From Escherichia coli (GTDB taxonomy: Bacteria > Pseudomonadota > Gammaproteobacteria > Enterobacterales > Enterobacteriaceae), in NCBI RefSeq assembly GCF_965641715.1, contig NZ_OZ282453.1: a stretch of 64,000 nucleotides of DNA, one strand, 5' to 3'. Made by a program: the position numbers and the translations under genes. The stretch's first letter is position 1; each line of letters starts with the position of its first letter. The notes beneath the pieces were generated by a model. That model saw nothing but the letters and a program-made list of their open reading frames with translations, was not told the origin of the DNA and searched no databases. Below, in pieces: positions 2,432 through 63,770 of the stretch.

Positions 2432-3803
2432 ATGCCCTGGATCGTGGCTGAGTGATACGTAAACCACTGACACAGGCAGCAATCACTGCCAGAATAGCCG
2501 CAGCCATCAGCGAGACGTGTGTACCATTATCTCCAAACTGATTTAGCATCAGCGCCACCAGCGCCGCGCCGCTACTCTGACCCAGTAGACGAGCCGTTCC
2601 TAACATGCCACTGGCTCCACCGCTACGTTCGCGAGGAGCGGAGGTAATAATGGTGTGGTTATTGGGTGACTGGAACAAGCCAAATCCAGCGCCACATAAG
2701 ATCATCGGCCAGATAATATTGATATCCGCAGGTGACGCGGGCAGCAGAACTAGGGAAAAAAGCCCCGCAGCCATGATGAATAATCCTAAAGCACCCAGCA
2801 ATCCTGCATGTACGCGTTCAATCAAATAGCCTGCCAACGGAGCCATCACCATCGTTGCTAACGGCCACGGTGTCAGAAGTAAACCTGTTTCGACTTCACT
2901 ACGCCCGAGCACGGTTTGCAGGTAAAAGGGCAGGGAAACCATTGCCAGCATTTGTGCGCAGAAAGAGCAAACAGATGTGCAAATAGAAAGTGAAAACAGC
3001 GGGATACGCAGTAAATCCACCGGTAGCAGCGGTACGGGAAGAGAAAGCTGGCGGCGAATAAAGAAAATACCAACAACAACCATTACCACCAGTTCCGCAG
3101 CAATTAACGTCAGCGATTGCCCCTGAGCGAAACCACTCAACGCAGTGATAAGCAGGCCGAAGGTTAACGCGTTCATCACGGCGCTGGGAAGGTCGAAACG
3201 GGGTTTACTGGCGCGAGAACCATTGGGTGGCAGAAAACGCATCGCCAGAAGCAGGGCGATAATACCTAACGGTACGTTGATTAAAAATAACCATTTCCAG
3301 GATGCGATGGAGAGGATTGCTGCAGCAATTGTCGGCCCGGCAGCAGAAGAGACGGCAACAATAAACGAGTTTATGCCCATCCCTCTACCCAGAAAACGTT
3401 GTGGATAGATCAGGCGGATAAGTGCGGTATTAACGCTCATCAACGCTGCACCGCCGAAACCTTGTATGACACGCGCAAGGGTGAGCATTTGCAGCGAATC
3501 AGAAAGGGCGCAGAACAGTGAAGACAACAGAAAAACGACCAGACCGCATTTATAAATACGTCGATAGCCAAACATATCGCCCAGAAACGAAAACGAGAGC
3601 AGGGAGATGACAATGGCGATTTGATAGGCGTTCACTACCCAGATGGAACTGGCTGGCGTGGCATGAAGGTCCGTGGCGATTGTTGGCAGGGCGACGTTGG
3701 CGATTGCGCCGTCAAGGACAGCCATCGAAATACCAATCACAATGGTTAATATCGCACCGTATCGCTGGGGCAATGGCAGGCCGTCGGCCTGAACTTTTGG
3801 CAT
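2430..3803 (-). CDS. yebQ: MFS-family efflux transporter YebQ
   Basis: Long hydrophobic ORF (track 2430..3914); start placed at MPKVQADGLPLPQRY (457 aa) from recollection of YebQ; the upstream 37 codons are probably an ORF-track extension. Confidence 0.8.
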   Translation of the reverse strand: MPKVQADGLPLPQRYGAILTIVIGISMAVLDGAIANVALPTIATDLHATPASSIWVVNAYQIAIVISLLSFSFLGDMFGYRRIYKCGLVVFLLSSLFCALSDSLQMLTLARVIQGFGGAALMSVNTALIRLIYPQRFLGRGMGINSFIVAVSSAAGPTIAAAILSIASWKWLFLINVPLGIIALLLAMRFLPPNGSRASKPRFDLPSAVMNALTFGLLITALSGFAQGQSLTLIAAELVVMVVVGIFFIRRQLSLPVPLLPVDLLRIPLFSLSICTSVCSFCAQMLAMVSLPFYLQTVLGRSEVETGLLLTPWPLATMVMAPLAGYLIERVHAGLLGALGLFIMAAGLFSLVLLPASPADINIIWPMILCGAGFGLFQSPNNHTIITSAPRERSGGASGMLGTARLLGQSSGAALVALMLNQFGDNGTHVSLMAAAILAVIAACVSGLRITQPRSRA

Positions 3804-3979: not shown

Positions 3980-4771
3980 ATGGCTAACGCAGATCTGGAT
4001 AAACAGCCTGATTCTGTATCTTCCGTGCTAAAAGTTTTTGGCATTTTGCAGGCGCTGGGTGAAGAGCGCGAAATAGGGATAACCGAGCTGTCACAGCGCG
4101 TCATGATGTCAAAAAGCACCGTTTATCGCTTTTTACAGACCATGAAAACCCTGGGTTATGTAGCGCAGGAAGGGGAGTCGGAGAAATATTCGCTGACCCT
4201 GAAATTGTTTGAACTGGGCGCTCGCGCGTTACAAAACGTTGATTTAATTCGTAGCGCAGATATCCAGATGCGTGAGATCTCCCGCCTGACCAAAGAAACT
4301 ATCCACCTCGGCGCACTGGACGAAGACAGTATTGTTTACATCCATAAAATTGACTCTATGTACAATTTGCGCATGTATTCACGGATTGGGCGTCGTAATC
4401 CACTGTACAGCACCGCGATTGGTAAGGTACTGCTGGCATGGCGCGATCGCGATGAAGTGAAGCAAATTCTTGAGGGCGTGGAGTATAAACGCAGTACCGA
4501 GCGGACCATCACCAGTACAGAAGCGTTATTACCGGTTCTGGACCAGGTGCGCGAGCAGGGGTATGGCGAAGATAACGAAGAGCAGGAAGAAGGGCTGCGA
4601 TGCATTGCGGTTCCGGTATTTGATCGCTTTGGCGTGGTCATTGCCGGTTTGAGCATCTCCTTCCCGACGTTGCGTTTCTCTGAAGAGCGTTTAAAGGAAT
4701 ATGTCGCAATGTTGCATACTGCAGCGCGCAAAATTTCTGCACAAATGGGTTATCACGACTATCCGTTCTGA
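3980..4771 (+). CDS. kdgR: IclR-family transcriptional repressor KdgR
   Basis: 263-aa ORF with N-terminal HTH and IclR effector domain; recognised as KdgR. Confidence 0.9.
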   Translation: MANADLDKQPDSVSSVLKVFGILQALGEEREIGITELSQRVMMSKSTVYRFLQTMKTLGYVAQEGESEKYSLTLKLFELGARALQNVDLIRSADIQMREISRLTKETIHLGALDEDSIVYIHKIDSMYNLRMYSRIGRRNPLYSTAIGKVLLAWRDRDEVKQILEGVEYKRSTERTITSTEALLPVLDQVREQGYGEDNEEQEEGLRCIAVPVFDRFGVVIAGLSISFPTLRFSEERLKEYVAMLHTAARKISAQMGYHDYPF

Positions 4772-4780
4772 TGAGAGTAA

Positions 4781-4818
4781 GAACCTGTCGGAATATCAAA
4801 CAGACAGGTTCTTTATTT
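4781..4818 (+). terminator. Intrinsic terminator after kdgR
   Basis: 9-bp stem GAACCTGTC/GACAGGTTC, 13-nt loop, followed by TTTATTT. Confidence 0.65.
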
Positions 4819-4914
4819 AGCATGAGAAAAATAAAGTTGAAGGTGGCGTTATATTAAACGCGCTTGCTATAAGAGTATTTTACTCATGAGTGAGAATCTG
4901 GTTATTTATTACAC

Positions 4915-5154
4915 TTAACCATTATCGACCACGATATTGCTTTTGCGTAACAGCGGGCAATCTGTTATCCCCAAAAAACCACTTTTAGTGTGCAAGTATT
5001 GTACCGTGCTGGTGCCTCTGGCAGTCAGATAGGTACATTGCAAACCTAATCCTGCGGCATTCTCTTTGCTTCCAATCAAAACGCCATATCCGCTGAGTAA
5101 TAATCCTATCCATACCAGTGCTATCAGCATAACTGTGCGAATGATGAATCGCAT
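4915..5154 (-). CDS. yobH: Small membrane protein YobH
   Basis: 79-aa ORF MRFIIRTVMLIALVWIGLL... with signal/TM segment; matches position between kdgR and mgrB. Confidence 0.75.
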   Translation of the reverse strand: MRFIIRTVMLIALVWIGLLLSGYGVLIGSKENAAGLGLQCTYLTARGTSTVQYLHTKSGFLGITDCPLLRKSNIVVDNG

Positions 5155-12494: not shown

Positions 12495-14051
12495 ATGGAA
12501 TTCTTAATGGACCCCTCAATTTGGGCGGGGCTACTCACGCTTGTTGTTCTCGAAATTGTGCTGGGTATCGATAACCTGGTCTTCATCGCCATTCTTGCTG
12601 ACAAACTGCCGCCAAAACAACGCGATAAAGCGCGTTTGCTGGGGTTATCACTGGCGCTGATTATGCGTCTGGGGCTGCTGTCGCTGATTTCATGGATGGT
12701 CACGCTGACCAAACCGCTATTTACCGTCATGGATTTCTCCTTCTCCGGACGCGACCTGATTATGTTGTTCGGGGGGATATTCTTGCTGTTCAAAGCAACA
12801 ACCGAACTGCATGAACGGTTGGAAAACCGTGATCATGATTCCGGCCACGGTAAAGGCTACGCCAGTTTCTGGGTAGTCGTCACACAGATTGTCATCCTTG
12901 ACGCCGTCTTCTCGTTGGATGCGGTAATTACTGCAGTAGGGATGGTTAACCATCTGCCGGTGATGATGGCGGCGGTAGTGATTGCGATGGCGGTTATGTT
13001 GCTGGCATCCAAACCGCTGACGCGATTTGTTAACCAGCACCCCACGGTGGTGGTGCTCTGTCTGAGCTTCCTGTTAATGATTGGTCTGAGTCTGGTGGCA
13101 GAAGGTTTCGGTTTCCACATTCCGAAAGGTTACCTGTATGCCGCGATTGGCTTCTCGATCATCATCGAAGTGTTTAACCAGATTGCGCGTCGCAACTTTA
13201 TTCGTCACCAGTCGACTTTGCCGCTGCGAGCGCGTACTGCCGATGCCATCCTGCGTTTGATGGGCGGGAAACGTCAGGCCAATGTTCAGCACGATGCCGA
13301 TAACCCGATGCCGATGCCGATCCCGGAAGGTGCATTTGCCGAAGAAGAACGTTACATGATTAACGGCGTACTGACGCTGGCGTCGCGTTCTCTGCGCGGG
13401 ATCATGACGCCGCGCGGTGAAATAAGCTGGGTTGACGCTAATCTCGGGGTAGATGAAATCCGCGAGCAGCTGCTCTCCTCACCGCACAGCCTGTTCCCGG
13501 TATGTCGCGGTGAACTGGATGAAATCATCGGAATCGTACGTGCTAAAGAACTGCTGGTGGCGCTGGAAGAGGGCGTTGATGTGGCGGCGATTGCTTCGGC
13601 GTCTCCGGCGATTATCGTCCCTGAAACCCTCGATCCGATCAACCTGCTGGGCGTGCTGCGTCGTGCTCGCGGGAGCTTTGTTATCGTGACCAACGAGTTT
13701 GGTGTGGTACAAGGCTTGGTCACGCCGCTGGATGTGCTGGAAGCCATTGCGGGTGAATTCCCGGACGCTGACGAAACGCCGGAGATCATTACTGATGGTG
13801 ACGGCTGGCTGGTAAAAGGCGGTACAGATTTGCATGCCTTGCAGCAGGCGCTTGATGTTGAGCACCTTGCCGATGACGATGATATCGCGACGGTCGCGGG
13901 CCTCGTGATCTCGGCAAATGGTCACATTCCCCGTGTGGGCGATGTGATTGATGTAGGGCCACTGCATATCACCATCATTGAAGCCAATGATTATCGTGTT
14001 GATCTGGTTCGCATTGTTAAAGAGCAACCGGCGCACGATGAAGATGAGTAA
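12495..14051 (+). CDS. yoaE: TerC-family membrane protein fused to CBS/CorC domains, YoaE
   Basis: 518-aa ORF: N-terminal TerC-like integral membrane domain, C-terminal CBS pair plus CorC-like domain. Confidence 0.85.
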
Positions 14052-53227: not shown

Positions 53228-53641
53228 ATGGCTAATAAACCTTCGGCAGAAGAACTGAAAAAAAATTTGTCCGAGATGCAGTTTTACGTGACGCAGAATC
53301 ATGGGACAGAGCCGCCATTTACGGGTCGTTTACTGCATAACAAGCGTGACGGCGTATATCACTGTTTGATCTGCGATGCCCCGCTGTTTCATTCCCAAAC
53401 CAAGTATGATTCCGGCTGTGGCTGGCCCAGTTTCTACGAACCGGTAAGTGAAGAATCCATTCGTTATATCAAAGACTTGTCACATGGAATGCAGCGCATA
53501 GAAATTCGTTGCGGTAACTGTGATGCCCATCTGGGGCATGTCTTCCCTGATGGGCCGCAGCCAACGGGCGAACGTTATTGTGTTAACTCTGCCTCTTTAC
53601 GCTTTACCGATGGCGAAAACGGCGAAGAAATCAACGGTTGA
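53228..53641 (+). CDS. msrB: Peptide methionine-(R)-sulfoxide reductase MsrB
   Basis: SelR domain with two CxxC pairs ([19 protein letters not shown]); start set at [10 protein letters not shown] (137 aa). Confidence 0.9.
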
Positions 53642-53682
53642 AAAAACGATTCAGCAACTTATTCCACAGGAGCGGAAAAATT

Positions 53683-53955
53683 ATGAATCTTGATGACATT
53701 ATCAACAGCATGACGCCTGAGGTATACCAGCGTTTGTCGACCGCCGTTGAACTGGGGAAATGGCCTGATGGCGTTGCGTTGACCGAGGAACAAAAAGAGA
53801 ACTGCCTGCAACTGGTGATGCTATGGCAAGCCCGCCATAATACCGAAGCACAGCATATGACAATTGACACAAATGGTCAGATGGTCATGAAGAGCAAACA
53901 GCAGTTAAAAGAAGATTTTGGTATCTCAGCAAAGCCTATTGCTATGTTTAAGTAA
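53683..53955 (+). CDS. yeaC: DUF1315 protein YeaC
   Basis: Start set at MNLDDIINSM (90 aa); track ORF begins 15 codons earlier and overlaps msrB. Confidence 0.8.
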   Translation: MNLDDIINSMTPEVYQRLSTAVELGKWPDGVALTEEQKENCLQLVMLWQARHNTEAQHMTIDTNGQMVMKSKQQLKEDFGISAKPIAMFK

Positions 53956-54193
53956 GTGGTTTATCCCCTTTTTGCCGCGGCTATGAAGGGGATAGCCAAC
54001 AATGACCCCACGACTCATCTCAATTATCTCGCCATGACCTGGCTAAGTCCCAGTCCGATCTCTTGCCGTCGCGTTCACGCCTGAATGACTTCTCCTGAAC
54101 TTAAGTCTCAGACCTATTTGGCCGGTAATCCCTCTCAAATTTGCTCATTTTGCGTTCCGCCTTCCATCAACCTGTAACAGAACCAGCCATTTT

Positions 54194-54249
54194 CTGCGTA
54201 ATTGTGATCTGAGTTGTAAAACGCAGATCATTATCTGTGTTTTACAGAT
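54194..54249. promoter_or_regulatory. Candidate operator array upstream of ydjL (repeated ATCTG/CAGAT inverted repeats)
   Basis: CTGCGT(54194)/ACGCAG(54221), TGATCTG(54204)/CAGATCA(54224), ATCTGT(54233)/ACAGAT(54244), 75-130 bp upstream of the ydjL start. Confidence 0.35.
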
Positions 54250-54324
54250 TTAATGTTGACCTCAAAAATCATGTGGGTAAGTATGATGACCATCTAAGCA
54301 AAACAAAACACAGAGGATGACGCA

Positions 54325-55401
54325 ATGAAAGCACTGGCTCGGTTTGGCAAAGCCTTTGGCGGCTACAAGATGATCGATGTGCCACAACCCATTTGTGGCC
54401 CGGAAGATGTAGTGATTGAAATTAAAGCCGCGGCAATCTGCGGCGCAGACATGAAGCACTACAATGTCGATAGCGGTTCTGATGAGTTTAACTCTATCCG
54501 CGGCCATGAGTTCGCAGGTTGTATTGCGCAGGTTGGTGAAAAAGTCAAAGACTGGAAAGTGGGGCAACGCGTCGTGTCGGATAACAGCGGTCACGTCTGC
54601 GGTGTTTGTCCGGCCTGTGAACAAGGTGATTTTCTGTGTTGTACAGAAAAAGTAAACCTTGGTCTGGATAACAATACCTGGGGCGGTGGTTTTTCCAAAT
54701 ATTGTCTGGTTCCTGGTGAAATTCTCAAAATTCATCGTCATGCGTTGTGGGAAATCCCTGATGGTGTTGATTATGAGGACGCAGCCGTACTTGACCCTAT
54801 CTGTAATGCCTACAAATCCATCGCGCAGCAATCGAAATTCCTTCCTGGTCAGGATGTGGTCGTCATCGGCACTGGCCCACTCGGGCTGTTCTCCGTACAA
54901 ATGGCGCGGATTATGGGGGCGGTAAATATCGTTGTCGTTGGTCTGCAAGAAGATGTGGCGGTCCGCTTCCCGGTTGCAAAAGAACTGGGTGCGACGGCAG
55001 TAGTAAATGGTTCTACCGAAGATGTGGTGGCGCGCTGCCAGCAAATTTGTGGCAAAGACAATCTGGGACTGGTGATTGAATGCTCCGGTGCCAATATCGC
55101 ACTTAAACAAGCCATCGAAATGCTCCGCCCAAACGGGGAAGTGGTACGCGTTGGAATGGGCTTCAAACCTCTTGATTTCTCGATTAATGACATTACCGCC
55201 TGGAACAAAAGCATCATTGGGCATATGGCCTATGACTCAACCTCATGGCGTAACGCTATCAGGCTATTAGCCAGCGGCGCTATCAAAGTCAAACCGATGA
55301 TCACGCATCGTATCGGCCTGTCGCAATGGCGCGAAGGGTTTGATGCGATGGTCGATAAAACCGCAATCAAAGTGATCATGACTTACGACTTTGATGAATA
55401 A
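54325..55401 (+). CDS. ydjL: Zn-dependent medium-chain alcohol/polyol dehydrogenase YdjL
   Basis: 358-aa MDR-family ORF with catalytic and structural zinc Cys ligands (GHE...CGVCPACEQGDFLCC). Confidence 0.85.
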   Translation: MKALARFGKAFGGYKMIDVPQPICGPEDVVIEIKAAAICGADMKHYNVDSGSDEFNSIRGHEFAGCIAQVGEKVKDWKVGQRVVSDNSGHVCGVCPACEQGDFLCCTEKVNLGLDNNTWGGGFSKYCLVPGEILKIHRHALWEIPDGVDYEDAAVLDPICNAYKSIAQQSKFLPGQDVVVIGTGPLGLFSVQMARIMGAVNIVVVGLQEDVAVRFPVAKELGATAVVNGSTEDVVARCQQICGKDNLGLVIECSGANIALKQAIEMLRPNGEVVRVGMGFKPLDFSINDITAWNKSIIGHMAYDSTSWRNAIRLLASGAIKVKPMITHRIGLSQWREGFDAMVDKTAIKVIMTYDFDE

Positions 55402-55427
55402 CAACTTTCCTGAAGGAACGTTATCGC

Positions 55428-56807
55428 ATGGAACAGATAACAAAACCGCATTGTGGTGCACGGCTGGATCGCTTACCGGATTGCCGCTGGCATTCGTCAA
55501 TGTTTGCCATCGTCGCGTTTGGCTTGCTTGTCTGCTGGAGTAATGCCGTTGGTGGCTTGATCCTCGCGCAGCTGAAAGCGTTGGGCTGGACAGATAATTC
55601 CACCACAGCCACATTCTCAGCAATCACGACCGCCGGAATGTTTCTCGGTGCGCTGGTGGGCGGCATCATTGGCGACAAAACCGGTCGCAGAAATGCGTTC
55701 ATCCTCTATGAGGCCATTCATATTGCCTCGATGGTTGTCGGTGCTTTCTCACCGAATATGGATTTCCTTATTGCCTGCCGTTTTGTGATGGGAGTTGGGC
55801 TGGGAGCTTTACTGGTTACGCTGTTTGCTGGTTTCACCGAATATATGCCCGGTAGAAATCGTGGAACGTGGTCAAGTCGGGTTTCCTTTATTGGCAACTG
55901 GTCATATCCGCTCTGTTCATTGATAGCGATGGGACTCACGCCGCTGATTAGTGCAGAGTGGAACTGGCGGGTACAACTGCTTATCCCTGCAATATTGTCG
56001 CTTATCGCTACGGCGCTGGCCTGGCGCTACTTTCCTGAATCCCCGCGCTGGCTGGAATCGCGCGGACGGTATCAGGAAGCCGAGAAAGTCATGCGGAGTA
56101 TAGAAGAAGGCGTCATACACCAGACGGGTAAACCTTTGCCGCCCGTGGTTATTGCTGATGACGGTAAAACGCCACAAGCGGTGCCGTATTCAGCCTTACT
56201 GACAGGAGTATTACTGAAACGCGTGATATTAGGCTCTTGTGTGCTGATTGCCATGAACGTTGTGCAGTACACACTAATTAACTGGTTGCCAACGATATTC
56301 ATGACCCAGGGGATTAATTTAAAAGACTCGATTGTTTTAAATACCATGAGTATGTTTGGCGCGCCATTTGGCATTTTTATTGCCATGCTGGTGATGGATA
56401 AAATTCCGCGTAAAACAATGGGTGTGGGGCTATTAATCCTGATTGCGGTGCTCGGATATATCTATTCACTGCAAACCAGTATGTTGCTCATAACGTTGAT
56501 TGGTTTCTTCCTGATTACTTTTGTCTATATGTACGTTTGCTATGCCTCGGCAGTGTATGTCCCTGAGATCTGGCCGACAGAGGCCAAACTCCGTGGCTCC
56601 GGTCTGGCGAATGCGGTAGGGCGAATCAGTGGTATTGCCGCACCTTATGCCGTTGCAGTGCTGCTCAGTAGTTATGGCGTTACGGGAGTCTTTATTCTTC
56701 TGGGGGCGGTTTCAATTATTGTCGCAATTGCTATCGCCACTATTGGAATCGAAACCAAAGGTGTCTCCGTTGAAAGTTTAAGTATTGATGCAGTAGCCAA
56801 TAAATAA
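55428..56807 (+). CDS. ydjK: MFS sugar/metabolite transporter YdjK
   Basis: 459-aa 12-TM ORF with MFS signature (GDKTGRR). Confidence 0.85.
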   Translation: MEQITKPHCGARLDRLPDCRWHSSMFAIVAFGLLVCWSNAVGGLILAQLKALGWTDNSTTATFSAITTAGMFLGALVGGIIGDKTGRRNAFILYEAIHIASMVVGAFSPNMDFLIACRFVMGVGLGALLVTLFAGFTEYMPGRNRGTWSSRVSFIGNWSYPLCSLIAMGLTPLISAEWNWRVQLLIPAILSLIATALAWRYFPESPRWLESRGRYQEAEKVMRSIEEGVIHQTGKPLPPVVIADDGKTPQAVPYSALLTGVLLKRVILGSCVLIAMNVVQYTLINWLPTIFMTQGINLKDSIVLNTMSMFGAPFGIFIAMLVMDKIPRKTMGVGLLILIAVLGYIYSLQTSMLLITLIGFFLITFVYMYVCYASAVYVPEIWPTEAKLRGSGLANAVGRISGIAAPYAVAVLLSSYGVTGVFILLGAVSIIVAIAIATIGIETKGVSVESLSIDAVANK

Positions 56808-56822
56808 TACGGTGGATTCAAA

Positions 56823-57866
56823 ATGAAAAATTCAAAAGCAATATTGCAGGTGCCGGGCACAATGAAAATTATTTCAGCAGAAATACCAGTGCCTAAAGAA
56901 GATGAAGTTTTGATTAAAGTAGAATATGTCGGTATTTGTGGTTCAGATGTACATGGTTTTGAATCAGGTCCGTTTATTCCGCCTAAAGACCCAAATCAAG
57001 AAATTGGCCTGGGTCATGAATGCGCCGGGACGGTTGTGGCTGTGGGAAGCCGCGTGCGCAAATTTAAACCGGGGGATCGGGTAAATATCGAACCTGGCGT
57101 TCCTTGCGGTCACTGTCGTTACTGTCTGGAAGGCAAATATAACATCTGCCCGGACGTTGATTTTATGGCGACACAACCCAACTACCGCGGCGCATTAACG
57201 CACTATCTGTGTCATCCGGAGAGCTTTACTTACAAACTGCCCGACAATATGGACACGATGGAAGGGGCGCTGGTGGAGCCTGCCGCAGTCGGGATGCATG
57301 CCGCGATGCTGGCAGATGTTAAACCGGGTAAGAAGATAATTATTCTGGGAGCAGGTTGTATTGGTTTGATGACGTTGCAAGCGTGCAAATGCCTGGGAGC
57401 AACGGAAATTGCCGTCGTTGATGTGCTGGAAAAACGTCTGGCAATGGCGGAACAGCTTGGTGCGACAGTGGTTATTAACGGCGCAAAAGAAGACACTATT
57501 GCACGCTGTCAGCAATTTACCGAAGACATGGGCGCAGATATTGTTTTCGAAACAGCGGGTTCTGCGGTCACCGTTAAACAGGCACCTTATCTGGTAATGC
57601 GCGGCGGTAAAATTATGATTGTTGGTACTGTACCCGGCGATTCGGCAATCAATTTCCTCAAAATAAATCGCGAAGTTACTATCCAGACGGTATTCCGCTA
57701 CGCCAATCGTTATCCGGTCACGATTGAAGCTATTTCTTCAGGGCGATTCGATGTGAAATCGATGGTGACGCATATTTACGATTATCGGGATGTACAACAG
57801 GCATTTGAAGAGTCAGTTAACAATAAACGCGACATTATTAAAGGCGTTATTAAGATTAGCGATTAA
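56823..57866 (+). CDS. ydjJ: Zn-dependent sorbitol/threonine-dehydrogenase-like enzyme YdjJ
   Basis: 347-aa MDR ORF (CGSDVHGF..., CGHCRYCLEGKYNIC). Confidence 0.85.
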   Translation: MKNSKAILQVPGTMKIISAEIPVPKEDEVLIKVEYVGICGSDVHGFESGPFIPPKDPNQEIGLGHECAGTVVAVGSRVRKFKPGDRVNIEPGVPCGHCRYCLEGKYNICPDVDFMATQPNYRGALTHYLCHPESFTYKLPDNMDTMEGALVEPAAVGMHAAMLADVKPGKKIIILGAGCIGLMTLQACKCLGATEIAVVDVLEKRLAMAEQLGATVVINGAKEDTIARCQQFTEDMGADIVFETAGSAVTVKQAPYLVMRGGKIMIVGTVPGDSAINFLKINREVTIQTVFRYANRYPVTIEAISSGRFDVKSMVTHIYDYRDVQQAFEESVNNKRDIIKGVIKISD

Positions 57867-57886
57867 TTAATACGGGAGAACAGAAC

Positions 57887-58723
57887 ATGCTCGCAGATAT
57901 CAGATATTGGGAAAACGATGCCACAAATAAACGTTATGCTATTGCCCATTTTAATGTATGGAATGCAGAAATGTTGATGGGCGTTATCGACGCAGCCGAA
58001 GAAGCGAAATCACCGGTTATTATTTCTTTTGGCACAGGTTTTGTCGGCAACACCTCATTTGAAGATTTCTCTCACATGATGGTATCAATGGCACAAAAAG
58101 CAACGGTGCCGGTAATAACTCATTGGGATCATGGTCGGAGTATGGAGATTATTCATAACGCCTGGACTCATGGGATGAATTCATTAATGCGTGATGCTTC
58201 CGCATTTGATTTCGAAGAAAATATTCGTTTAACCAAAGAGGCTGTTGATTTTTTCCATCCGCTGGGTATTCCGGTAGAGGCGGAATTAGGGCATGTCGGT
58301 AATGAAACCGTTTATGAGGAAGCTCTGGCGGGCTATCACTATACCGATCCTGACCAGGCGGCTGAATTTGTTGAACGTACGGGCTGTGACTCATTGGCTG
58401 TCGCCATCGGCAACCAGCATGGGGTTTATACGTCAGAGCCACAATTGAACTTTGAGGTCGTCAAACGCGTACGCGATGCCGTGTCTGTTCCGCTGGTTTT
58501 GCATGGCGCATCGGGGATCAGTGATGCCGACATTAAAACTGCAATTTCGTTGGGTATCGCGAAAATCAACATCCATACGGAGCTCTGTCAGGCCGCAATG
58601 GTCGCAGTGAAAGAAAACCAGGATCAGCCTTTCCTGCATTTAGAACGTGAAGTACGTAAAGCTGTAAAAGAACGGGCATTGGAAAAAATTAAACTGTTCG
58701 GTTCTGATGGCAAAGCGGAATAA
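57887..58723 (+). CDS. ydjI: Class II (metal-dependent) fructose-bisphosphate-aldolase-family protein YdjI
   Basis: 278-aa ORF of the FbaA/GatY/KbaY family. Confidence 0.85.
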   Translation: MLADIRYWENDATNKRYAIAHFNVWNAEMLMGVIDAAEEAKSPVIISFGTGFVGNTSFEDFSHMMVSMAQKATVPVITHWDHGRSMEIIHNAWTHGMNSLMRDASAFDFEENIRLTKEAVDFFHPLGIPVEAELGHVGNETVYEEALAGYHYTDPDQAAEFVERTGCDSLAVAIGNQHGVYTSEPQLNFEVVKRVRDAVSVPLVLHGASGISDADIKTAISLGIAKINIHTELCQAAMVAVKENQDQPFLHLEREVRKAVKERALEKIKLFGSDGKAE

Positions 58724-58727
58724 TGAT

Positions 58728-59675
58728 ATGGATAATCTCGACGTTATTTGTATAGGTGCCGCTATTGTTGATATTCCATTGCAACCGGTCAGTAAAAATA
58801 TCTTTGATGTGGATTCTTATCCTCTTGAAAGAATCGCAATGACCACCGGGGGTGATGCAATAAATGAAGCAACAATTATTTCTCGTCTGGGCCATCGCAC
58901 AGCATTAATGAGTCGTGTTGGTAAAGATGCCGCAGGGCAGTTTATTCTCGACCATTGCCGCAAAGAGAATATTGATATTCAAAGCCTGAAACAGGACGTC
59001 AACATAGATACCTCTATTAACGTAGGACTGGTGACGGAGGATGGCGAGCGGACGTTTGTCACAAACCGTAACGGCAGTCTGTGGAAATTGAATATTGACG
59101 ATGTTGATTTTGCGCGGTTTTCTCAGGCGAAATTATTATCACTGGCCAGTATTTTCAACAGTCCACTATTAGATGGTAAAGCGCTAACAGAAATTTTTAC
59201 GCAAGCTAAAGCCCGGCAGATGATTATCTGTGCCGATATGATCAAACCGCGGTTGAATGAAACGCTGGATGATATTTGCGAAGCATTGAGTTATGTCGAT
59301 TATCTGTTTCCTAATTATGCCGAGGCAAAATTACTCACCGGGAAAGAGACACTGGATGAAATTGCTGACTGCTTTCTTGCGTGCGGCGTAAAAACGGTGG
59401 TGATTAAAACGGGTAAAGACGGCTGCTTTATCAAGCGTGGTGACATGACGATGAAGGTGCCGGCGGTCGCAGGAATAACCGCCATCGACACCATTGGCGC
59501 GGGCGATAACTTTGCTTCAGGTTTTATTGCGGCACTGTTAGAAGGCAAAAATCTGCGTGAATGCGCACGCTTTGCCAATGCAACGGCGGCTATCTCGGTT
59601 CTAAGCGTCGGTGCCACCACCGGCGTAAAAAACAGAAAGCTGGTCGAACAATTGCTGGAAGAATACGAAGGATAA
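58728..59675 (+). CDS. ydjH: PfkB/ribokinase-family sugar kinase YdjH
   Basis: PfkB C-terminal motif (GAGDNFASGF); start set at MDNLDVICIG (315 aa). Confidence 0.85.
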   Translation: MDNLDVICIGAAIVDIPLQPVSKNIFDVDSYPLERIAMTTGGDAINEATIISRLGHRTALMSRVGKDAAGQFILDHCRKENIDIQSLKQDVNIDTSINVGLVTEDGERTFVTNRNGSLWKLNIDDVDFARFSQAKLLSLASIFNSPLLDGKALTEIFTQAKARQMIICADMIKPRLNETLDDICEALSYVDYLFPNYAEAKLLTGKETLDEIADCFLACGVKTVVIKTGKDGCFIKRGDMTMKVPAVAGITAIDTIGAGDNFASGFIAALLEGKNLRECARFANATAAISVLSVGATTGVKNRKLVEQLLEEYEG

Positions 59676-59684
59676 TGAAGGCAA

Positions 59685-60665
59685 ATGAAAAAGATACCTT
59701 TAGGCACAACGGATATAACGCTTTCGCGAATGGGTTTGGGGACATGGGCCATTGGCGGCGGTCCTGCATGGAATGGCGATCTCGATCGGCAAATATGTAT
59801 TGATACGATTCTTGAAGCCCATCGTTGCGGCATTAATCTGATTGATACTGCGCCAGGATATAACTTTGGCAATAGTGAAGTTATCGTCGGTCAGGCGTTA
59901 AAAAAACTGCCCCGTGAACAGGTTGTAGTAGAAACCAAATGCGGCATTGTCTGGGAACGAAAAGGGAGTTTATTCAACAAAGTTGGCGATCGGCAGTTGT
60001 ATAAAAACCTTTCCCCGGAATCTATCCGCGAAGAGGTAGAAGCCAGCTTGCAACGTCTGGGTATTGATTACATCGATATCTACATGACGCACTGGCAGTC
60101 GGTGCCGCCATTTTATACGCCGATCGCTGAAACTGTCGCAGTGCTTAATGAGTTAAAGGCTGAAGGGAAAATTCGCGCTATAGGCGCTGCTAACGTCGAT
60201 GCTGACCATATCCGCGAGTATCTGCAATATGGTGAACTGGATATTATTCAGGCGAAATACAGTATCCTCGACCGGGCAATGGAAAACGAACTGCTGCCGC
60301 TATGTCGTGATAATGGCATTGTGGTTCAGGTTTATTCCCCGCTAGAGCAGGGATTGTTGACCGGCACCATCACTCGTGATTACGTTCCGGGCGGCGCTCG
60401 GGCAAATAAAGTCTGGTTCCAGCGTGAAAACATGCTGAAAGTGATTGATATGCTTGAACAGTGGCAGCCACTTTGTGCTCGTTATCAGTGCACAATTCCC
60501 ACTCTGGCACTGGCGTGGATATTAAAACAGAGTGATTTAATCTCCATTCTTAGTGGGGCTACTGCACCGGAACAGGTACGCGAAAATGTCGCGGCACTGA
60601 ATATCAACTTATCGGATGCAGACGCAACATTGATGAGGGAAATGGCAGAGGCCCTGGAGCGTTAA
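59685..60665 (+). CDS. ydjG: Aldo-keto reductase YdjG
   Basis: 326-aa AKR-family ORF. Confidence 0.85.
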   Translation: MKKIPLGTTDITLSRMGLGTWAIGGGPAWNGDLDRQICIDTILEAHRCGINLIDTAPGYNFGNSEVIVGQALKKLPREQVVVETKCGIVWERKGSLFNKVGDRQLYKNLSPESIREEVEASLQRLGIDYIDIYMTHWQSVPPFYTPIAETVAVLNELKAEGKIRAIGAANVDADHIREYLQYGELDIIQAKYSILDRAMENELLPLCRDNGIVVQVYSPLEQGLLTGTITRDYVPGGARANKVWFQRENMLKVIDMLEQWQPLCARYQCTIPTLALAWILKQSDLISILSGATAPEQVRENVAALNINLSDADATLMREMAEALER

Positions 60666-60687
60666 ATACTCAACACGATTCACCTCT

Positions 60688-60722
60688 GTTTCTGTGAAAA
60701 CTGTGATGAAAATCTGTGATTC
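60688..60722. promoter_or_regulatory. Three direct CTGTGA repeats upstream of ydjF (candidate DeoR/CRP-type operator)
   Basis: CTGTGA at 60692, 60701 and 60714 in the ydjG-ydjF intergenic region, 80-110 bp upstream of the ydjF GTG start. Confidence 0.3.
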
Positions 60723-60801
60723 AAACAGGTTATTTTGAAAGTAAACATCGGTTATGCGATAATCGTGCTAATGTGATGTAAAAAGATACAGGGGTGTAAT
60801 C

Positions 60802-61560
60802 GTGGCGGCAAAAGACAGGATTCAGGCAATTAAGCAAATGGTTGCCAACGATAAAAAGGTGACAGTCTCAAATTTGAGTGGGATTTTTCAGGTAACCGAA
60901 GAAACCATTCGCCGCGATCTTGAGAAGCTGGAAGATGAAGGCTTTTTGACCAGAACTTATGGTGGTGCTGTTTTAAATACAGCGATGTTGACGGAGAATA
61001 TTCATTTTTATAAGCGCGCTTCATCGTTTTATGAAGAGAAGCAGCTTATTGCACGCAAGGCACTACCCTTTATCGACAATAAAACCACCATGGCAGCCGA
61101 TTCCAGTAGTACCGTAATGGAATTGCTCAAATTGTTACAGGACCGTAGTGACCTGACGTTGCTAACCAACTCGGCGGAAGCGATTCATGTTCTGGCTCAG
61201 TCAGAAATTAAAGTCGTTTCAACGGGTGGGGAACTAAACAAAAATACACTTTCACTGCAAGGAAGAATTACTAAAGAGATCATCAGCCGCTATCATGTCG
61301 ATATCATGGTAATGAGTTGTAAAGGTCTTGATATTAACAGCGGCGCGCTGGACTCTAATGAAGCGGAAGCTGAAATCAAAAAGACAATGATCCGTCAGGC
61401 GACAGAAGTTGCGTTATTGGTTGATCACTCTAAGTTTGATCGCAAAGCTTTTGTCCAGTTAGCTGACTTTAGTCATATTAATTACATAATAACTGATAAA
61501 TCACCGGGTGCAGAGTGGATAGCATTTTGCAAAGACAATAATATCCAGCTGGTGTGGTAA
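60802..61560 (+). CDS. ydjF: DeoR-family transcriptional regulator YdjF (GTG start)
   Basis: 252-aa ORF with N-terminal DeoR HTH and C-terminal sugar-phosphate-binding domain. Confidence 0.85.
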   Translation: MAAKDRIQAIKQMVANDKKVTVSNLSGIFQVTEETIRRDLEKLEDEGFLTRTYGGAVLNTAMLTENIHFYKRASSFYEEKQLIARKALPFIDNKTTMAADSSSTVMELLKLLQDRSDLTLLTNSAEAIHVLAQSEIKVVSTGGELNKNTLSLQGRITKEIISRYHVDIMVMSCKGLDINSGALDSNEAEAEIKKTMIRQATEVALLVDHSKFDRKAFVQLADFSHINYIITDKSPGAEWIAFCKDNNIQLVW

Positions 61561-61677
61561 TTTAAGCACACGTTGTCAATATTATTTGTTCCTGCGCCTG
61601 GAAATAAAATGATGATAAAGATGCGGCAAGTGAATTTGCCGCAATTGCTACCTTTTTTAGCAAATCCGAGGCACCCA

Positions 61678-63036
61678 ATGGAACAATATGATCAAATTGG
61701 CGCAAGACTGGACCGCTTGCCTTTGGCCCGGTTTCATTATCGTATATTTGGTATTATAAGCTTTAGTCTGTTATTAACAGGGTTTTTGAGTTACTCCGGT
61801 AATGTCGTCTTAGCAAAGCTGGTAAGCAATGGATGGTCAAATAATTTCCTCAATGCCGCCTTTACCTCGGCATTAATGTTTGGTTATTTCATCGGCTCTC
61901 TTACCGGTGGGTTCATCGGTGATTACTTTGGGCGGCGCAGGGCGTTTCGCATAAATCTTCTCATCGTCGGTATTGCTGCAACAGGGGCCGCTTTTGTCCC
62001 TGATATGTACTGGCTCATCTTCTTTCGCTTCCTGATGGGAACAGGAATGGGGGCGCTGATTATGGTTGGCTATGCCTCATTTACGGAGTTTATCCCCGCG
62101 ACGGTGCGTGGAAAATGGTCCGCGCGGCTCTCATTTGTTGGTAACTGGTCGCCCATGCTGTCTGCGGCGATAGGTGTGGTGGTTATCGCTTTTTTTAGTT
62201 GGCGGATAATGTTTCTGTTGGGTGGTATTGGCATACTGTTAGCCTGGTTTCTCTCAGGTAAATACTTTATCGAGTCGCCACGATGGCTGGCAGGGAAAGG
62301 GCAAATCGCAGGTGCAGAATGCCAACTTCGTGAAGTAGAGCAGCAAATTGAAAGAGAGAAGAGTATTCGTTTACCCCCGCTTACTTCGTATCAGAGCAAC
62401 AGCAAGGTTAACGTAATCAAGGGTACTTTCTGGCTCCTGTTTAAAGGTGAAATGTTACGACGTACATTAGTCGCGATTACTGTTTTAATTGCAATGAACA
62501 TTTCGCTTTATACCATCACCGTATGGATACCGACCATATTTGTTAACTCCGGCATTGATGTCGATAAATCAATATTAATGACCGCTGTTATTATGATTGG
62601 CGCTCCGGTAGGAATATTTATTGCGGCATTAATTATTGATCATTTTCCTCGTCGGTTATTTGGCTCCACCTTACTTATTATTATTGCCGTGTTAGGCTAT
62701 ATCTATTCAATTCAGACTACAGAGTGGGCGATTTTAATCTATGGCCTGGTGATGATCTTCTTTTTATACATGTATGTTTGCTTCGCGTCGGCGGTTTATA
62801 TCCCGGAGCTTTGGCCAACGCATTTACGCCTGCGCGGTTCGGGTTTCGTTAATGCCGTCGGACGGATCGTCGCAGTCTTCACGCCCTATGGCGTTGCGGC
62901 ATTATTAACACATTATGGGTCGATCACGGTGTTTATGGTGCTTGGTGTTATGTTAGTGCTCTGTGCGCTGGTTCTCTCTATTTTTGGCATCGAAACGCGG
63001 AAGGTGTCGTTGGAAGAGATTTCTGAGGTGAATTAA
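61678..63036 (+). CDS. ydjE: MFS transporter YdjE
   Basis: 12-TM MFS paralogous to YdjK (same GDxxGRR motif); start set at MEQYDQIGARL (452 aa), track ORF begins 35 codons earlier. Confidence 0.8.
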   Translation: MEQYDQIGARLDRLPLARFHYRIFGIISFSLLLTGFLSYSGNVVLAKLVSNGWSNNFLNAAFTSALMFGYFIGSLTGGFIGDYFGRRRAFRINLLIVGIAATGAAFVPDMYWLIFFRFLMGTGMGALIMVGYASFTEFIPATVRGKWSARLSFVGNWSPMLSAAIGVVVIAFFSWRIMFLLGGIGILLAWFLSGKYFIESPRWLAGKGQIAGAECQLREVEQQIEREKSIRLPPLTSYQSNSKVNVIKGTFWLLFKGEMLRRTLVAITVLIAMNISLYTITVWIPTIFVNSGIDVDKSILMTAVIMIGAPVGIFIAALIIDHFPRRLFGSTLLIIIAVLGYIYSIQTTEWAILIYGLVMIFFLYMYVCFASAVYIPELWPTHLRLRGSGFVNAVGRIVAVFTPYGVAALLTHYGSITVFMVLGVMLVLCALVLSIFGIETRKVSLEEISEVN

Positions 63037-63128
63037 ATCTTTCGTTGATGGCATCAATTGCCAGATGTGCCACTGACGTGTTTTATTTGGCCTACAATGC
63101 CAGTACAGAATTGTAGGCCAGCGTAAAA

Positions 63129-63770
63129 TTACCCCTGCGTCTCTTCCCAGTCTGCCAGCGTATATAGCGTTGCCCCAGCTGCTGACATCTCCATAAACGC
63201 GTGCGCACTGTCCTGTGGCTGAATATTCACGCCACGACAACCATCGGTAATCACGTTCACCTTATAACCTAACTGTAACGCATCCAGCACGGTAAACTTC
63301 ACGCAATAGTCAGTAGCCAGGCCCATAACGATCAATTCATCGATTTCATGATCGCGTAACCAGTCATCGAGCGTGGTTTTCTGCCGACGGCCGTTATCAA
63401 AAAAGGCACTGTAACTGTCAACTAAAGGATTTTCGCCTTTATGGAACACCGCTGCGATCGCTTTTTGGTTCAGTAACGGATGTAATTGTGCGCCTTCACT
63501 GTTCTGCACACAGTGATCTGGCCAGAAGGTTTGTGGCAAACCGTCGAGTTGACCTGGCGTATAAGGCTCGACACTGTGCTGACTGGCAAAACTGCCGTGA
63601 TTCGCCGGGTGCCAGTCCTGACTGGCGATAACCGCTTCACCGCGCGACTGGCACCAGTCAATCAGGCGGTTAGCGACATCCACCGTACTGTCACCTTCCG
63701 GCACGGCGAGCGCGCCACCAGCACAGAAATCATTTTGTAAATCGACCAGTAACAGGGCGCGAGGGGGCAT
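63129..63770 (-). CDS. pncA: Nicotinamidase/pyrazinamidase PncA
   Basis: Isochorismatase-like fold; start set at MPPRALLLVDLQNDF (213 aa). Confidence 0.9.
   Translation of the reverse strand: MPPRALLLVDLQNDFCAGGALAVPEGDSTVDVANRLIDWCQSRGEAVIASQDWHPANHGSFASQHSVEPYTPGQLDGLPQTFWPDHCVQNSEGAQLHPLLNQKAIAAVFHKGENPLVDSYSAFFDNGRRQKTTLDDWLRDHEIDELIVMGLATDYCVKFTVLDALQLGYKVNVITDGCRGVNIQPQDSAHAFMEMSAAGATLYTLADWEETQG

Follow-up and report, generated by a model that had tools for sequence, protein, structure and literature searches.

Identity and gene content of the ydj locus

The window, a stretch of 64,000 nucleotides of Escherichia coli DNA, contains at positions 54325-63036 the known E. coli ydjLKJIHG-ydjF-ydjE cluster, consisting of eight intact genes, all on the + strand, flanked by yeaC and pncA. 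The gene order from ydjL to ydjE between yeaC and pncA was found both in the ORF list and in the RefSeq annotation of strain A30, which is 99.6% identical, and the locus, its flanks and its gene order are the same as those of the K-12 cluster (b1776-b1769; Huddleston & Raushel 2019). The ydj DNA is about 98.9% identical to that of K-12 strains, with strain-level sequence differences only, and the proteins gave full-length matches to the K-12 structures 6OFU (E=6e-187), 3H49 (E=2e-205) and 5VM2 (E=6e-235). Of 5426 complete E. coli genomes, 5425 gave a megablast match to the region. A sequence-only reading had described eight co-oriented genes here, and the ORF list gave identical outer coordinates and the same strand; since the cluster is the already-known ydj locus, that finding is correct but not new. 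The reading's assignment of an aldolase, a PfkB kinase, an aldo-keto reductase and a DeoR regulator was upheld by family matches, and the catalytic and metal-binding motifs of the ydj enzymes were all present.

Two zinc-dependent MDR dehydrogenases, which are only 28% identical to each other, are encoded by ydjL (54325-55401, + strand; threonine-dehydrogenase-like) and ydjJ (56823-57866, + strand; resembling the sorbitol/polyol dehydrogenase type). Both contain the catalytic zinc ligands (Cys, GHE), the structural-zinc motif CxxCxxCx7C and the GxGxxG nucleotide fold, represented in YdjL by Cys39/His61/Glu62, a structural-zinc Cys4 motif and GTGPLG. YdjJ corresponds to PDB 5VM2, and its next best match was the ketose reductase 1E3J (E 8e-75), followed by human sorbitol dehydrogenase, with E-values for the ketose reductase and sorbitol dehydrogenases of 8e-75 to 2e-66. 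The sole PDB match of YdjL below 1e-40 was a threonine dehydrogenase, and its Firmicutes counterparts are 70-87% identical. Both had been described as zinc polyol dehydrogenases; we found that the zinc MDR assignment holds for both, but that only YdjJ resembles polyol dehydrogenases, YdjL being closest to threonine-dehydrogenase-like MDRs. The resemblance of YdjJ to neutral polyol dehydrogenases is an observation that speaks against an anionic substrate.

The ydjI gene (57887-58723, + strand) encodes a class II (zinc) DHAP-dependent aldolase, with a score of 324 bits against TIGR00167 (cut-off 215.6), the metal-ligand motifs DHG, GNQHG and LHGASG, and a structure titled 'YdjI aldolase' (PDB 6OFU). 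YdjI could not be assigned as an equivalog of FbaA, GatY or KbaY, as the best score was 247 bits against a cut-off of 343 (TIGR01859), and the GatY and KbaY models likewise scored below their cut-offs. The PfkB/ribokinase-family sugar kinase gene ydjH (58728-59675 from the RefSeq start, with a longer ORF from 58707; + strand) encodes the GAGD catalytic motif (DTIGAGD, residue 254) and is represented by PDB 3H49/3IN1, of which 3H49 was deposited as 'ribokinase / YdjH'. Its top NCBIfam match was the IolC-like 5-dehydro-2-deoxygluconokinase model, at 143 bits (cut-off 300), and assignment as an IolC equivalog was rejected.

The two MFS transporter genes are ydjK (55428-56807, + strand) and ydjE (61678-63036 from the RefSeq start, with a longer TTG ORF from 61573; + strand). 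Their description as paralogues was borne out by the family matches and by the 44% identity of the two proteins. The best family of YdjK was aromatic-acid/H+ symporter-like, with a score under the curated cut-off.

The aldo-keto reductase encoded by ydjG (59685-60665, + strand), annotated as an NADH-dependent methylglyoxal reductase, scored 629 bits against NF049922 (cut-off 550), contains the Asp-Tyr-Lys-His tetrad motifs, and has B. subtilis YhdN and IolS as its nearest structures. The enzyme owes its name to the reduction of methylglyoxal in vitro, and the name reflects this activity rather than a physiological role. From the same activity one might read the cluster as a stress or detoxification module, in which YdjG clears methylglyoxal or reactive aldehydes and the transporters aid osmotic or acid tolerance; methylglyoxal activity is, however, common among promiscuous aldo-keto reductases. 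Better growth at high salt on ydjK overexpression, as cited in a passage of PMC6561318, and the over-representation of ydj genes in lactic-acid-resistant meat-plant E. coli (PMC9602453) are in line with such a module. However, the acid-resistance link follows phylogroup, with carriage of 96.6% in group A versus 29.9% in B1 (PMC9602453), and a kinase, a DHAP aldolase and two dehydrogenases in a fixed order across phyla represent a catabolic design; we consider the stress reading very unlikely.

Transcription units and candidate regulation by YdjF

The spacers from ydjL to ydjG are 4-26 bp long, and none of them contains a terminator-like site. The ydjG-ydjF gap of 136 bp holds a conserved extended -10 promoter (60713-60763, + strand), composed of the -35 hexamer TTGAAA at 60735, a 17-bp spacer and the extended -10 TGcGATAAT, with an operator-like site TCTGTGATTCAAACA at 60713-60727. 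This TTGAAA-17-GATAAT arrangement was the best sigma-70 match in the region, its block, including the 22-bp offset of the operator-like site, is kept in enteric bacteria, and the same hexamers were listed as an RpoD 'constitutive promoter' of ydjF on the basis of RNA polymerase binding in genomic SELEX (PMC3946193). The ydjF-ydjE gap of 117 bp holds a conserved GC-rich hairpin (61622-61643, + strand) followed by a T-tract (61653-61658). Of the 10 base pairs predicted for this hairpin, 4 showed compensatory changes (RNAalifold, 12 enteric sequences); the hairpin matched no Rfam family, and is possibly a terminator or attenuator. On this sequence evidence, the internal ydjF promoter and the hairpin argue against a single operon, and the cluster is probably not transcribed as one unit. 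The cluster had been taken as one operon; since ydjF has its own promoter, it is better described as one module, and this weakens the single transcript but leaves the single functional module untouched.

The promoter of ydjL, PydjL, is off in culture and on during mouse gut passage, and levels of YdjG protein are raised in the caecum (PMC6561318). The cluster, which had been called 'cryptic', is not fully silent. The yeaC-ydjL spacer (53954-54324, + strand), the regulatory region of ydjLKJIHG, is kept across Enterobacterales in its final ~130 bp and not farther upstream. It contains a -35-like TTGACC (54256-54261) and a putative weak -10 AAGTAT (54279-54284). Starting 22 bp before the -35-like hexamer is a palindrome, TCTGTGTTTTACAGA (54234-54248), which falls in a longer inverted repeat (54214-54247) and is a candidate YdjF operator. 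When up to 2 mismatches were allowed, 45 of 78 loci had the 15-bp pattern TCTGTG-N3-CACAGA upstream of ydjL, a density of 2.56 per kb versus a background of 0.10 per kb (25-fold). In most of the ydjL loci carrying it, the palindrome lies 21-23 bp before a TTGAnn hexamer, in enteric bacteria as well as in Firmicutes, and the 17-nt version gave 3 matches in the window versus 0.09 expected. Firmicutes do not possess CRP.

The ydjF gene (60802-61560, GTG start, + strand) encodes a regulator with an N-terminal HTH and a C-terminal DeoR sugar-phosphate-binding sensor. Residues 1-250 align over the full length of the GlpR, AgaR and SrlR models, as does the protein with the FucR model, and the scores were under every equivalog cut-off tested (GlpR, AgaR, SrlR and FucR); we therefore place YdjF in the DeoR/GlpR family without an assigned specificity. 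In 46 of 58 non-enteric loci ydjF adjoins the enzyme genes. We infer from the sequence patterns that TCTGTG-N3-CACAGA may be the YdjF operator, at which YdjF would act as a repressor. YdjF could instead be an activator, since the palindrome is centred near -50, which is not a classic repressor position; the DeoR-family activator FucR is a precedent. CRP dependence has also been proposed for ydj (PMC8085971; PMC3105977).

Block inheritance, selection and conservation across phyla

Among 5,426 complete E. coli genomes, about 21% lack the cluster together with its promoter region (53954-63070) as one clean block of 9.1 kb. At least 80% of the block was present in 4265 of the 5426 genomes, and the remainder showed a clean yeaC|pncA junction, homology ending at the yeaC stop (53953) and restarting at 63071. 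A REP-like palindrome between the convergent ydjE and pncA (63071-63121) marks the right edge of the block; its single Rfam match was sub-threshold and is put down to chance. The absence of the block from about a fifth of the genomes, IS insertions in the cluster of several strains and silence in laboratory media (PMC6561318) might suggest an evolutionary relic, that is, cryptic genes heading for loss and without current function. However, none of the eight ORFs is disrupted here or in most genomes, the promoter, operator-like and ribosome-binding regions are conserved, PydjL fires in the mouse gut (PMC6561318), and strong purifying selection acts on every one of the eight genes (dN/dS 0.008-0.06). 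The selection data already largely refute the relic reading, to which we give almost no credence.

A genome-neighbourhood comparison, suggested along with the sequence-only reading, showed that 58 non-enteric loci, drawn from at least four phyla, keep the L-(K)-J-I-H-G-F order. The hosts of this core include Lachnospiraceae, Clostridium, Veillonella, Atopobiaceae, Synergistaceae and Gilliamella, with protein identities of 50-87%. ydjK is found in 35 of these 58 loci. ydjE is present in all enteric loci, and elsewhere a DAACS or ABC transporter is usually found in its place; ydjE is the Enterobacterales-specific part of the cluster.

A proposed pathway and its nearest known systems

The cluster had been read as a pathway that oxidises or reduces, phosphorylates and cleaves its substrate, and the gene content, protein families and intact motifs agree with this architecture. 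The statement that the substrate is not established also stands, as no paper defining a growth substrate or inducer was found within the full-text collection searched, and the database names of the ydj proteins are still generic. Nor is loss of a ydj gene known to cause a phenotype. For L-glycero-L-galacto-octuluronate, the reported kcat/Km is said to be modest. According to secondary citations of Huddleston & Raushel 2019 in passages of PMC9602453, YdjH and YdjI accept carboxylate-terminated 2-keto sugars of C7-C9 in vitro, in agreement with the in vitro results on long-chain keto-sugars mentioned in the sequence-only reading. There, and in PMC11194214, the substrate that suits YdjI best is given as L-glycero-L-galacto-octuluronate-1-phosphate, made from DHAP and L-arabinuronate. 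PMC9602453 also describes the octuluronate as having 'no natural abundance'; in view of this, and of the modest kcat/Km mentioned above, it may only mimic the real substrate.

We propose, with a probability of roughly 60%, that the cluster works as a horizontally mobile module for the catabolism of a carbohydrate associated with the gut, most likely an anionic, carboxylate-bearing higher-carbon sugar or its aldonate or polyol form. YdjK and YdjE would import the sugar as MFS symporters, and the NAD-dependent zinc dehydrogenases YdjJ and YdjL, with YdjG, would interconvert aldehyde, alcohol and ketone to give a 2-ketose with a free C1 hydroxymethyl; alternatively, YdjG may reduce the aldehyde released after cleavage. 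YdjH would then phosphorylate the ketose at C1, and YdjI would cleave the ketose-1-phosphate to DHAP and an acid aldehyde. YdjF would keep the genes off by binding TCTGTG-N3-CACAGA beside the -35 of PydjL and at its own promoter, until, by analogy, a phosphorylated pathway intermediate relieved this control, with CRP co-activating. In this scheme we infer which redox step precedes which, what the substrate is and what kind of inducer acts. Our own analysis supplied the set of genes with their intact active sites, the evidence of selection and of inheritance as a block, the synteny across phyla, and the conservation of promoter and palindrome. Others have shown the kinase and aldolase reactions in vitro, the activation of the promoter during mouse gut passage, and the binding of RNA polymerase to PydjF.

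Alternatively, the same enzymes could degrade a rare ketose or polyol that is neutral, by a pathway resembling the fructose-1-phosphate route. A hexitol or heptitol would be oxidised to a 2-ketose by YdjJ or YdjL and phosphorylated at C1 by YdjH, YdjI would yield DHAP and a neutral aldose such as glyceraldehyde, and YdjG would reduce the aldose; on this view, the preference for carboxylates observed in vitro would be an artefact arising from the choice of compounds tested. In passages of PMC9602453, however, both YdjH and YdjI prefer a negatively charged terminus. YdjJ is closest to sorbitol, xylitol and L-arabinitol dehydrogenases. In 29 of the 58 non-enteric loci, ydjL and ydjK are separated by a gene of the AlsE-like D-allulose-6-phosphate 3-epimerase family (254 bits, slightly under the 271-bit cut-off), and a few loci contain CUT1 sugar ABC transporters and an FGGY kinase. 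The epimerase gene, present in half of the Firmicutes clusters, and the few CUT1 systems thus pull towards neutral sugars. Against this, the accessory transporters of the non-enteric loci are mostly of types typical for acids or amino acids (DAACS in 28 and Liv-type ABC in 12 of 58). YdjK and YdjE are grouped with sugar porters in UniProt-style annotation and match TIGR00879 weakly, but both score two to three times higher with aromatic-acid/H+ symporter models than with sugar-porter models. Moreover, E. coli has been phenotyped on common polyols and ketoses for decades, and to our knowledge this has not implicated ydj. We regard a neutral substrate as rather unlikely, and prefer the anionic higher-carbon sugar.

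In the late steps of myo-inositol catabolism in B. subtilis, IolC phosphorylates the hydroxymethyl beside the keto group of a keto sugar acid and IolJ yields DHAP and an acid semialdehyde; the system also includes the aldo-keto reductase IolS and a repressor that senses a phosphorylated intermediate. Similarly, ydj pairs a PfkB kinase with a class II aldolase, the best NCBIfam model for YdjH is IolC, and IolS is near YdjG. In contrast, ydj has no IolG, IolE, IolD or IolB-type genes, YdjH scores far under the IolC cut-off, and the chain-length preference given for ydj in passages of PMC9602453 is C7-C9, not C6.

The E. coli tagatose-bisphosphate pathways for galactitol (gat) and N-acetylgalactosamine (aga), with GatY/KbaY, GatD and GatR/AgaR, resemble ydj in that an aldolase of the class II ketose-bisphosphate type is clustered with a zinc MDR dehydrogenase and a DeoR-family regulator. 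With YdjI, the models for GatY and KbaY gave 186-240 bits, and with YdjF the AgaR model gave 153 bits, all under the cut-offs. Unlike these systems, ydj has neither PTS components nor a GatZ/KbaZ partner subunit, and uptake and phosphorylation are assigned to MFS transporters and a soluble PfkB kinase.

In the L-idonate and L-galactonate routes, the zinc MDR dehydrogenases IdnD and LgoD oxidise aldonates at C5 to keto-uronates, a precedent for making carboxylate-ended 2-keto sugars. YdjJ and YdjL belong to the same enzyme family, although their scores with the L-idonate 5-dehydrogenase model (176 and 117 bits, respectively) are under the 469-bit cut-off. Whereas the IdnD and LgoD routes go on by reduction or dehydration, the ydj pathway would go on by C1 phosphorylation and aldol cleavage.

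Gene content, carriage and selection in E. coli

The eight co-oriented genes that the sequence-only reading had placed at 54325-63036 extend from the start codon of ydjL to the stop codon of ydjE, and all of their open reading frames are intact. On the + strand, ydjL (54325-55401) and ydjJ (56823-57866) encode zinc MDR dehydrogenases, ydjK (55428-56807) and ydjE (61678-63036) MFS transporters, ydjI (57887-58723) a class II aldolase, ydjH (58728-59675) a PfkB kinase, ydjG (59685-60665) an aldo-keto reductase with an NCBIfam equivalog of its own, and ydjF (60802-61560) a DeoR/GlpR regulator. NCBIfam matches and motifs support the families first claimed (aldolase, PfkB kinase, aldo-keto reductase, two MFS transporters, two zinc dehydrogenases and DeoR regulator), and a complete set of catalytic and metal-binding motifs was found in the ydj proteins. 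YdjI scored above the cut-off of the class II ketose-bisphosphate aldolase subfamily and YdjG above that of its equivalog, while none of YdjL, YdjJ, YdjH, YdjK, YdjE and YdjF passed the cut-off of any functionally defined NCBIfam equivalog. Structures of the K-12 proteins exist for YdjI (6OFU), YdjH (3H49/3IN1) and YdjJ (5VM2). Of the two enzymes first described as polyol dehydrogenases, YdjJ is clearly related to sorbitol/polyol dehydrogenases, and YdjL looks threonine-dehydrogenase-like; the two share 28% identity. YdjK and YdjE are paralogues with 44% identity. In a 90%-identity protein collection, the group containing YdjL (358 aa) also includes 459-aa entries of YdjK length named 'MFS transporter', an apparent artefact of the clustering to which fused or mis-called genes may have given rise.

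A megablast search matched the ydj region in 5,425 of 5,426 complete E. coli genomes. The top match was strain A30 (99.6% identity), whose RefSeq annotation has the same eight genes, with gapA, msrB and yeaC to one side of them and pncA and ansA to the other. The region is cleanly absent from about 21% of complete E. coli genomes, in agreement with the phylogroup-dependent carriage reported previously, 29.9% in phylogroup B1 versus 96.6% in group A (PMC9602453). In cluster-negative genomes, homology stops at the yeaC stop codon (53953) and restarts at 63071, the missing block comprising the promoter region and all eight genes. The yeaC-pncA spacer of one such strain, E. coli E14, is 160 bp long (1457-1616 of locus L002, corresponding to window 53954-63123); about 95 bp of this spacer are unmatched in the cluster-positive allele, and the rest is a diverged copy of a REP-like element with 80% identity. 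Insertions of IS3, IS5, IS1 or IS903 inside the cluster were observed in several E. coli lineages, e.g., O145 (54000-63300; hits H2, H13, H14, H24-H26 and H42), and strain HeN100 has 64% of the region left.

The dN/dS values of every gene were 0.008-0.06 in comparisons with Escherichia whittamii, Citrobacter and Klebsiella oxytoca. Selection thus maintains the cluster, which is not in decay. An evolutionary relic would fit poorly with these values and with the architecture of the cluster, and we consider it scarcely credible; a role in detoxification or the stress response, which also agrees poorly with both, is very improbable.

Transcription units and candidate regulatory sites

The spacers between ydjL and ydjG are 4-26 bp long, and no terminator-like site was found in any of them, which fits a ydjLKJIHG transcript. 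The 136 bp ydjG-ydjF spacer contains the top sigma-70 match of the region (TTGAAA, 17 bp, GATAAT, with an extended -10 TG), a promoter that is conserved throughout Enterobacterales, and identical ydjF hexamers were obtained by genomic SELEX with RNA polymerase holoenzyme (PMC3946193). The ydjF-ydjE spacer (117 bp) has a conserved GC-rich hairpin, with some compensatory changes, followed by a T-tract. The ydjF promoter and this hairpin/T-tract suggest that the eight genes probably form two or three transcription units. The concept of an eight-gene cluster is upheld by the ties among the genes in population and comparative data, but a single transcript for all eight is improbable. Just 5' of the hairpin lies a conserved AATGATGAT(G/A) motif (61609-61677), whose ATGs share the ydjE frame in E. 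coli; in Citrobacter and Klebsiella, they start an ORF of about 19 codons ending within the T-tract, which could be a leader peptide or an attenuator for ydjE.

The last ~130 bp 5' of ydjL are conserved among enteric bacteria. A palindrome within this stretch, TCTGTGTTTTACAGA (54234-54248), starts 22 bp before the -35-like TTGACC of ydjL, and an operator-like site of the ydjF promoter, TCTGTGATTCAAACA (60713-60727), also starts 22 bp before its -35. A third match, at 47941, lies inside a 644-aa ORF and was taken as chance. With up to 2 mismatches allowed, the consensus TCTGTG-N3-CACAGA was found within 250 bp 5' of ydjL in 45 of the 78 loci scanned, at a density of 2.56 per kb 5' of ydjL versus 0.10 per kb in the remainder of those loci. 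It stands 21-23 bp before a TTGAnn hexamer in about 33 loci, among them those of Lachnospiraceae, Blautia and Erysipelotrichaceae. As the sequences had been inspected before the pattern was drawn up, the argument for an operator rests on the enrichment and the fixed spacing. Because Firmicutes, to our knowledge, lack CRP, and because YdjF is the sole regulator that travels with the cluster, we infer that the palindrome is a candidate YdjF operator. CRP as the source of the shared motif was rejected, as Firmicutes carry the same palindrome. By eye, no full CRP site was seen in the promoter regions of ydjL and ydjF, which contain only TGTGA half-sites; CRP control of ydj has been proposed (PMC8085971; PMC3105977). 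The ydjL promoter, silent in culture, turns a memory circuit on during mouse gut passage (PMC6561318). The predicted operator, together with this gut-responsive promoter, offers a direct handle for an inducer search.

The repression exerted by other members of the family, such as DeoR, GlpR and AgaR, is lifted by a phosphorylated intermediate. By analogy, this suggests that repression by YdjF may be relieved in the same manner; action as an activator is possible, given that the site is centred near -50. A long inverted repeat of 15 pairs, TTGTAAAACGCAGATCATTATCTGTGTTTTACAG (54214-54247), places alternating CAGAT and ATCTG units 5' of the main palindrome, and may be a second operator through which the regulator could bind cooperatively or form a loop. 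The 16-mer GGGAAAACGATGCCAC at the 5' end of ydjI (57909-57924) is listed as the in silico GalR operator candidate 'ydjI', with no regulation reported there (PMC5110547). In the Lachnospiraceae loci L025-L043, a conserved GC-rich palindrome, ACGTTTCCGGCCGGAAAACG, lies ~60-90 bp 5' of the ydjL start (e.g., L029 ~3470-3500). Part of the 5' leader in the Firmicutes operons and missing from the enteric ones, it may form an RNA hairpin or offer a second site for protein binding. An Rfam scan of 53500-63500 (E<=1) detected no known riboswitch or sRNA; its sole hit, a sub-threshold match to the microRNA family mir-2796 on the REP-like palindrome separating ydjE from pncA (63071-63145), was dismissed as spurious (24 bits versus a gathering score of 72).

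Conservation across phyla

A YdjI scan with one genome per species yielded 80 loci. In Escherichia, Citrobacter, the K. oxytoca group, Raoultella and Yokenella, the cluster occupies the same gapA-msrB-yeaC site. Outside Enterobacterales, YdjI proteins with 73-87% identity are found in Lachnospiraceae, Mediterraneibacter, Blautia, Clostridium puniceum, Veillonella, Megamonas, Anaerococcus, Atopobiaceae, Synergistaceae and Gilliamella, and the gene order L-(K)-J-I-H-G-F is retained. The genome-neighbourhood comparison suggested earlier thus reveals a core order conserved across phyla. Typical identities in Lachnospiraceae are ~83% for YdjL, ~79% for YdjJ, ~68% for YdjH, ~62% for YdjG and ~53% for YdjF. 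The ydjE gene was added in enteric bacteria. In a neighbour-joining tree of YdjL, YdjI and YdjG, Enterobacterales form a single tight clade among the Firmicutes; Gilliamella, Actinobacteria and Synergistaceae are scattered, which implies several transfers between phyla. Outside enteric bacteria, the GC content of the cluster tracks that of the host, from 0.31 to 0.64, and very recent horizontal transfer is accordingly an unlikely cause of the 85% cross-phylum identity for Firmicutes. In nearly all Enterobacterales loci, the cluster GC is 0-9 points below that of the flanks (here 0.464 versus 0.493), consistent with an older import.

In the 58 non-enteric loci, an AlsE-like ketose-phosphate 3-epimerase gene (D-allulose-6-phosphate 3-epimerase family) is located between ydjL and ydjK in 29, and a DAACS symporter gene lies 3' of ydjF in 28; locus L024 is an example of both (4304-4999 and 12516-13871), with 28 similar loci. 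The E. coli locus has neither gene. A Liv-type ABC system accompanies the cluster in 12 of the 58, and a CUT1 ABC system or an FGGY kinase occasionally. The non-enteric flanks were searched for substrate clues such as glycosidases and sialidase-like genes, and these five were the recurrent extras. The rest of the neighbours are either housekeeping genes (GlmS, GlmU, BipA-like) or a set of 5-oxoprolinase, aminotransferase and RraA-like genes that occurs in a few loci only.

The ydj cluster is therefore not a curiosity of E. coli: its enzyme set, gene order and promoter-operator layout recur in many gut Firmicutes, Actinobacteria, Negativicutes and the bee-gut Gilliamella, and the identity of the proteins is unusually high. 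This recurrence suggests that the substrate is likely a compound common in animal guts or in plants.

A proposed pathway and a speculative ulosonic acid route

A full-text search, limited to searchable papers, found no paper defining a growth substrate or inducer of ydj, and the source names of the ydj proteins in databases are still generic, so that the earlier statement that a physiological substrate is lacking stands. Its mention of in vitro work on long-chain keto-sugars also matches secondary citations. According to these citations, the substrates preferred by YdjH and YdjI are long-chain 2-keto sugars that end in a carboxylate, and YdjI interconverts DHAP plus L-arabinuronate and L-glycero-L-galacto-octuluronate-1-phosphate, a compound of 'no natural abundance' (PMC9602453; PMC11194214). 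The feature is real and was correctly read: ydj is a named, partly characterised and already recognised orphan cluster, among the few complete-looking catabolic clusters of E. coli K-12 still without a physiological substrate. This main finding restates a known open question, whose status the new data leave unchanged; the present analysis adds the conservation across phyla, a candidate operator and a substrate hypothesis that can be tested.

The enzyme families and the intact motifs bear out the architecture first proposed, in which a substrate is oxidised or reduced, phosphorylated and cleaved. We propose, with a probability of roughly 60%, that ydj is a catabolic module for a gut-associated, probably anionic, higher-carbon carbohydrate. 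After uptake, YdjJ, YdjL and YdjG would tune its oxidation state to give a 2-ketose, YdjH would phosphorylate C1, and YdjI would cleave the product to DHAP and an acid aldehyde, under the control of YdjF and CRP. Independently, the gene content favours a carboxylate-bearing substrate, since anion/amino-acid-type carriers predominate in the non-enteric loci, and since YdjK and YdjE fit aromatic-acid/H+ symporter models better than sugar-porter models. The same carriers argue against the main rival explanation, a pathway for a neutral rare ketose or polyol, although the AlsE-like epimerase of the non-enteric loci and the sorbitol-dehydrogenase-like YdjJ leave room for a neutral substrate; we regard this rival as unlikely.

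A speculative reading, which we offer as a long shot, is that ydj could be a new route trimming the glycol/glycerol tail of 2-ulosonic acids, for example Kdo or Kdn derived from LPS, pectin RG-II or glycoconjugates. The penultimate carbon would be oxidised by YdjJ or YdjL and the terminal hydroxymethyl phosphorylated by YdjH; YdjI would then free DHAP, leaving a 2-keto-3-deoxy-uronate semialdehyde that YdjG would reduce to a 2-keto-3-deoxy-aldonate. Such tail cleavage would employ every core enzyme. It agrees with the transporters of anion type, with induction in the gut, where LPS and pectin RG-II are found, and with the carriage of ydj by pectin degraders (Clostridium puniceum and Gilliamella) and many Lachnospiraceae. 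The Raushel laboratory may have tried Kdo/Kdn-type compounds already. No Kdo catabolic gene cluster was described in the literature searched, and Kdo derivatives were seen to boost the growth of E. coli in minimal medium; counting against the ulosonic acid route, Kdo uptake in K-12 is reported to depend on NanT (reference listed in PMC12199768). A likeness to an octulosonic acid of LPS has already been remarked (PMC9602453). In our comparison, made by hand from Fischer projections and not computed, 7-dehydro-Kdo (numbered from C8) and L-glycero-L-galacto-octuluronate, the best YdjI/YdjH substrate in vitro, are both eight-carbon compounds with a terminal carboxylate, and share their configuration from C3 to C5 (D-arabino), with 3S,4R at the cleaved bond. 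By the same reasoning, C3 to C6 of 8-dehydro-Kdn (numbered from C9) are exactly L-galacto, matching the octuluronate.
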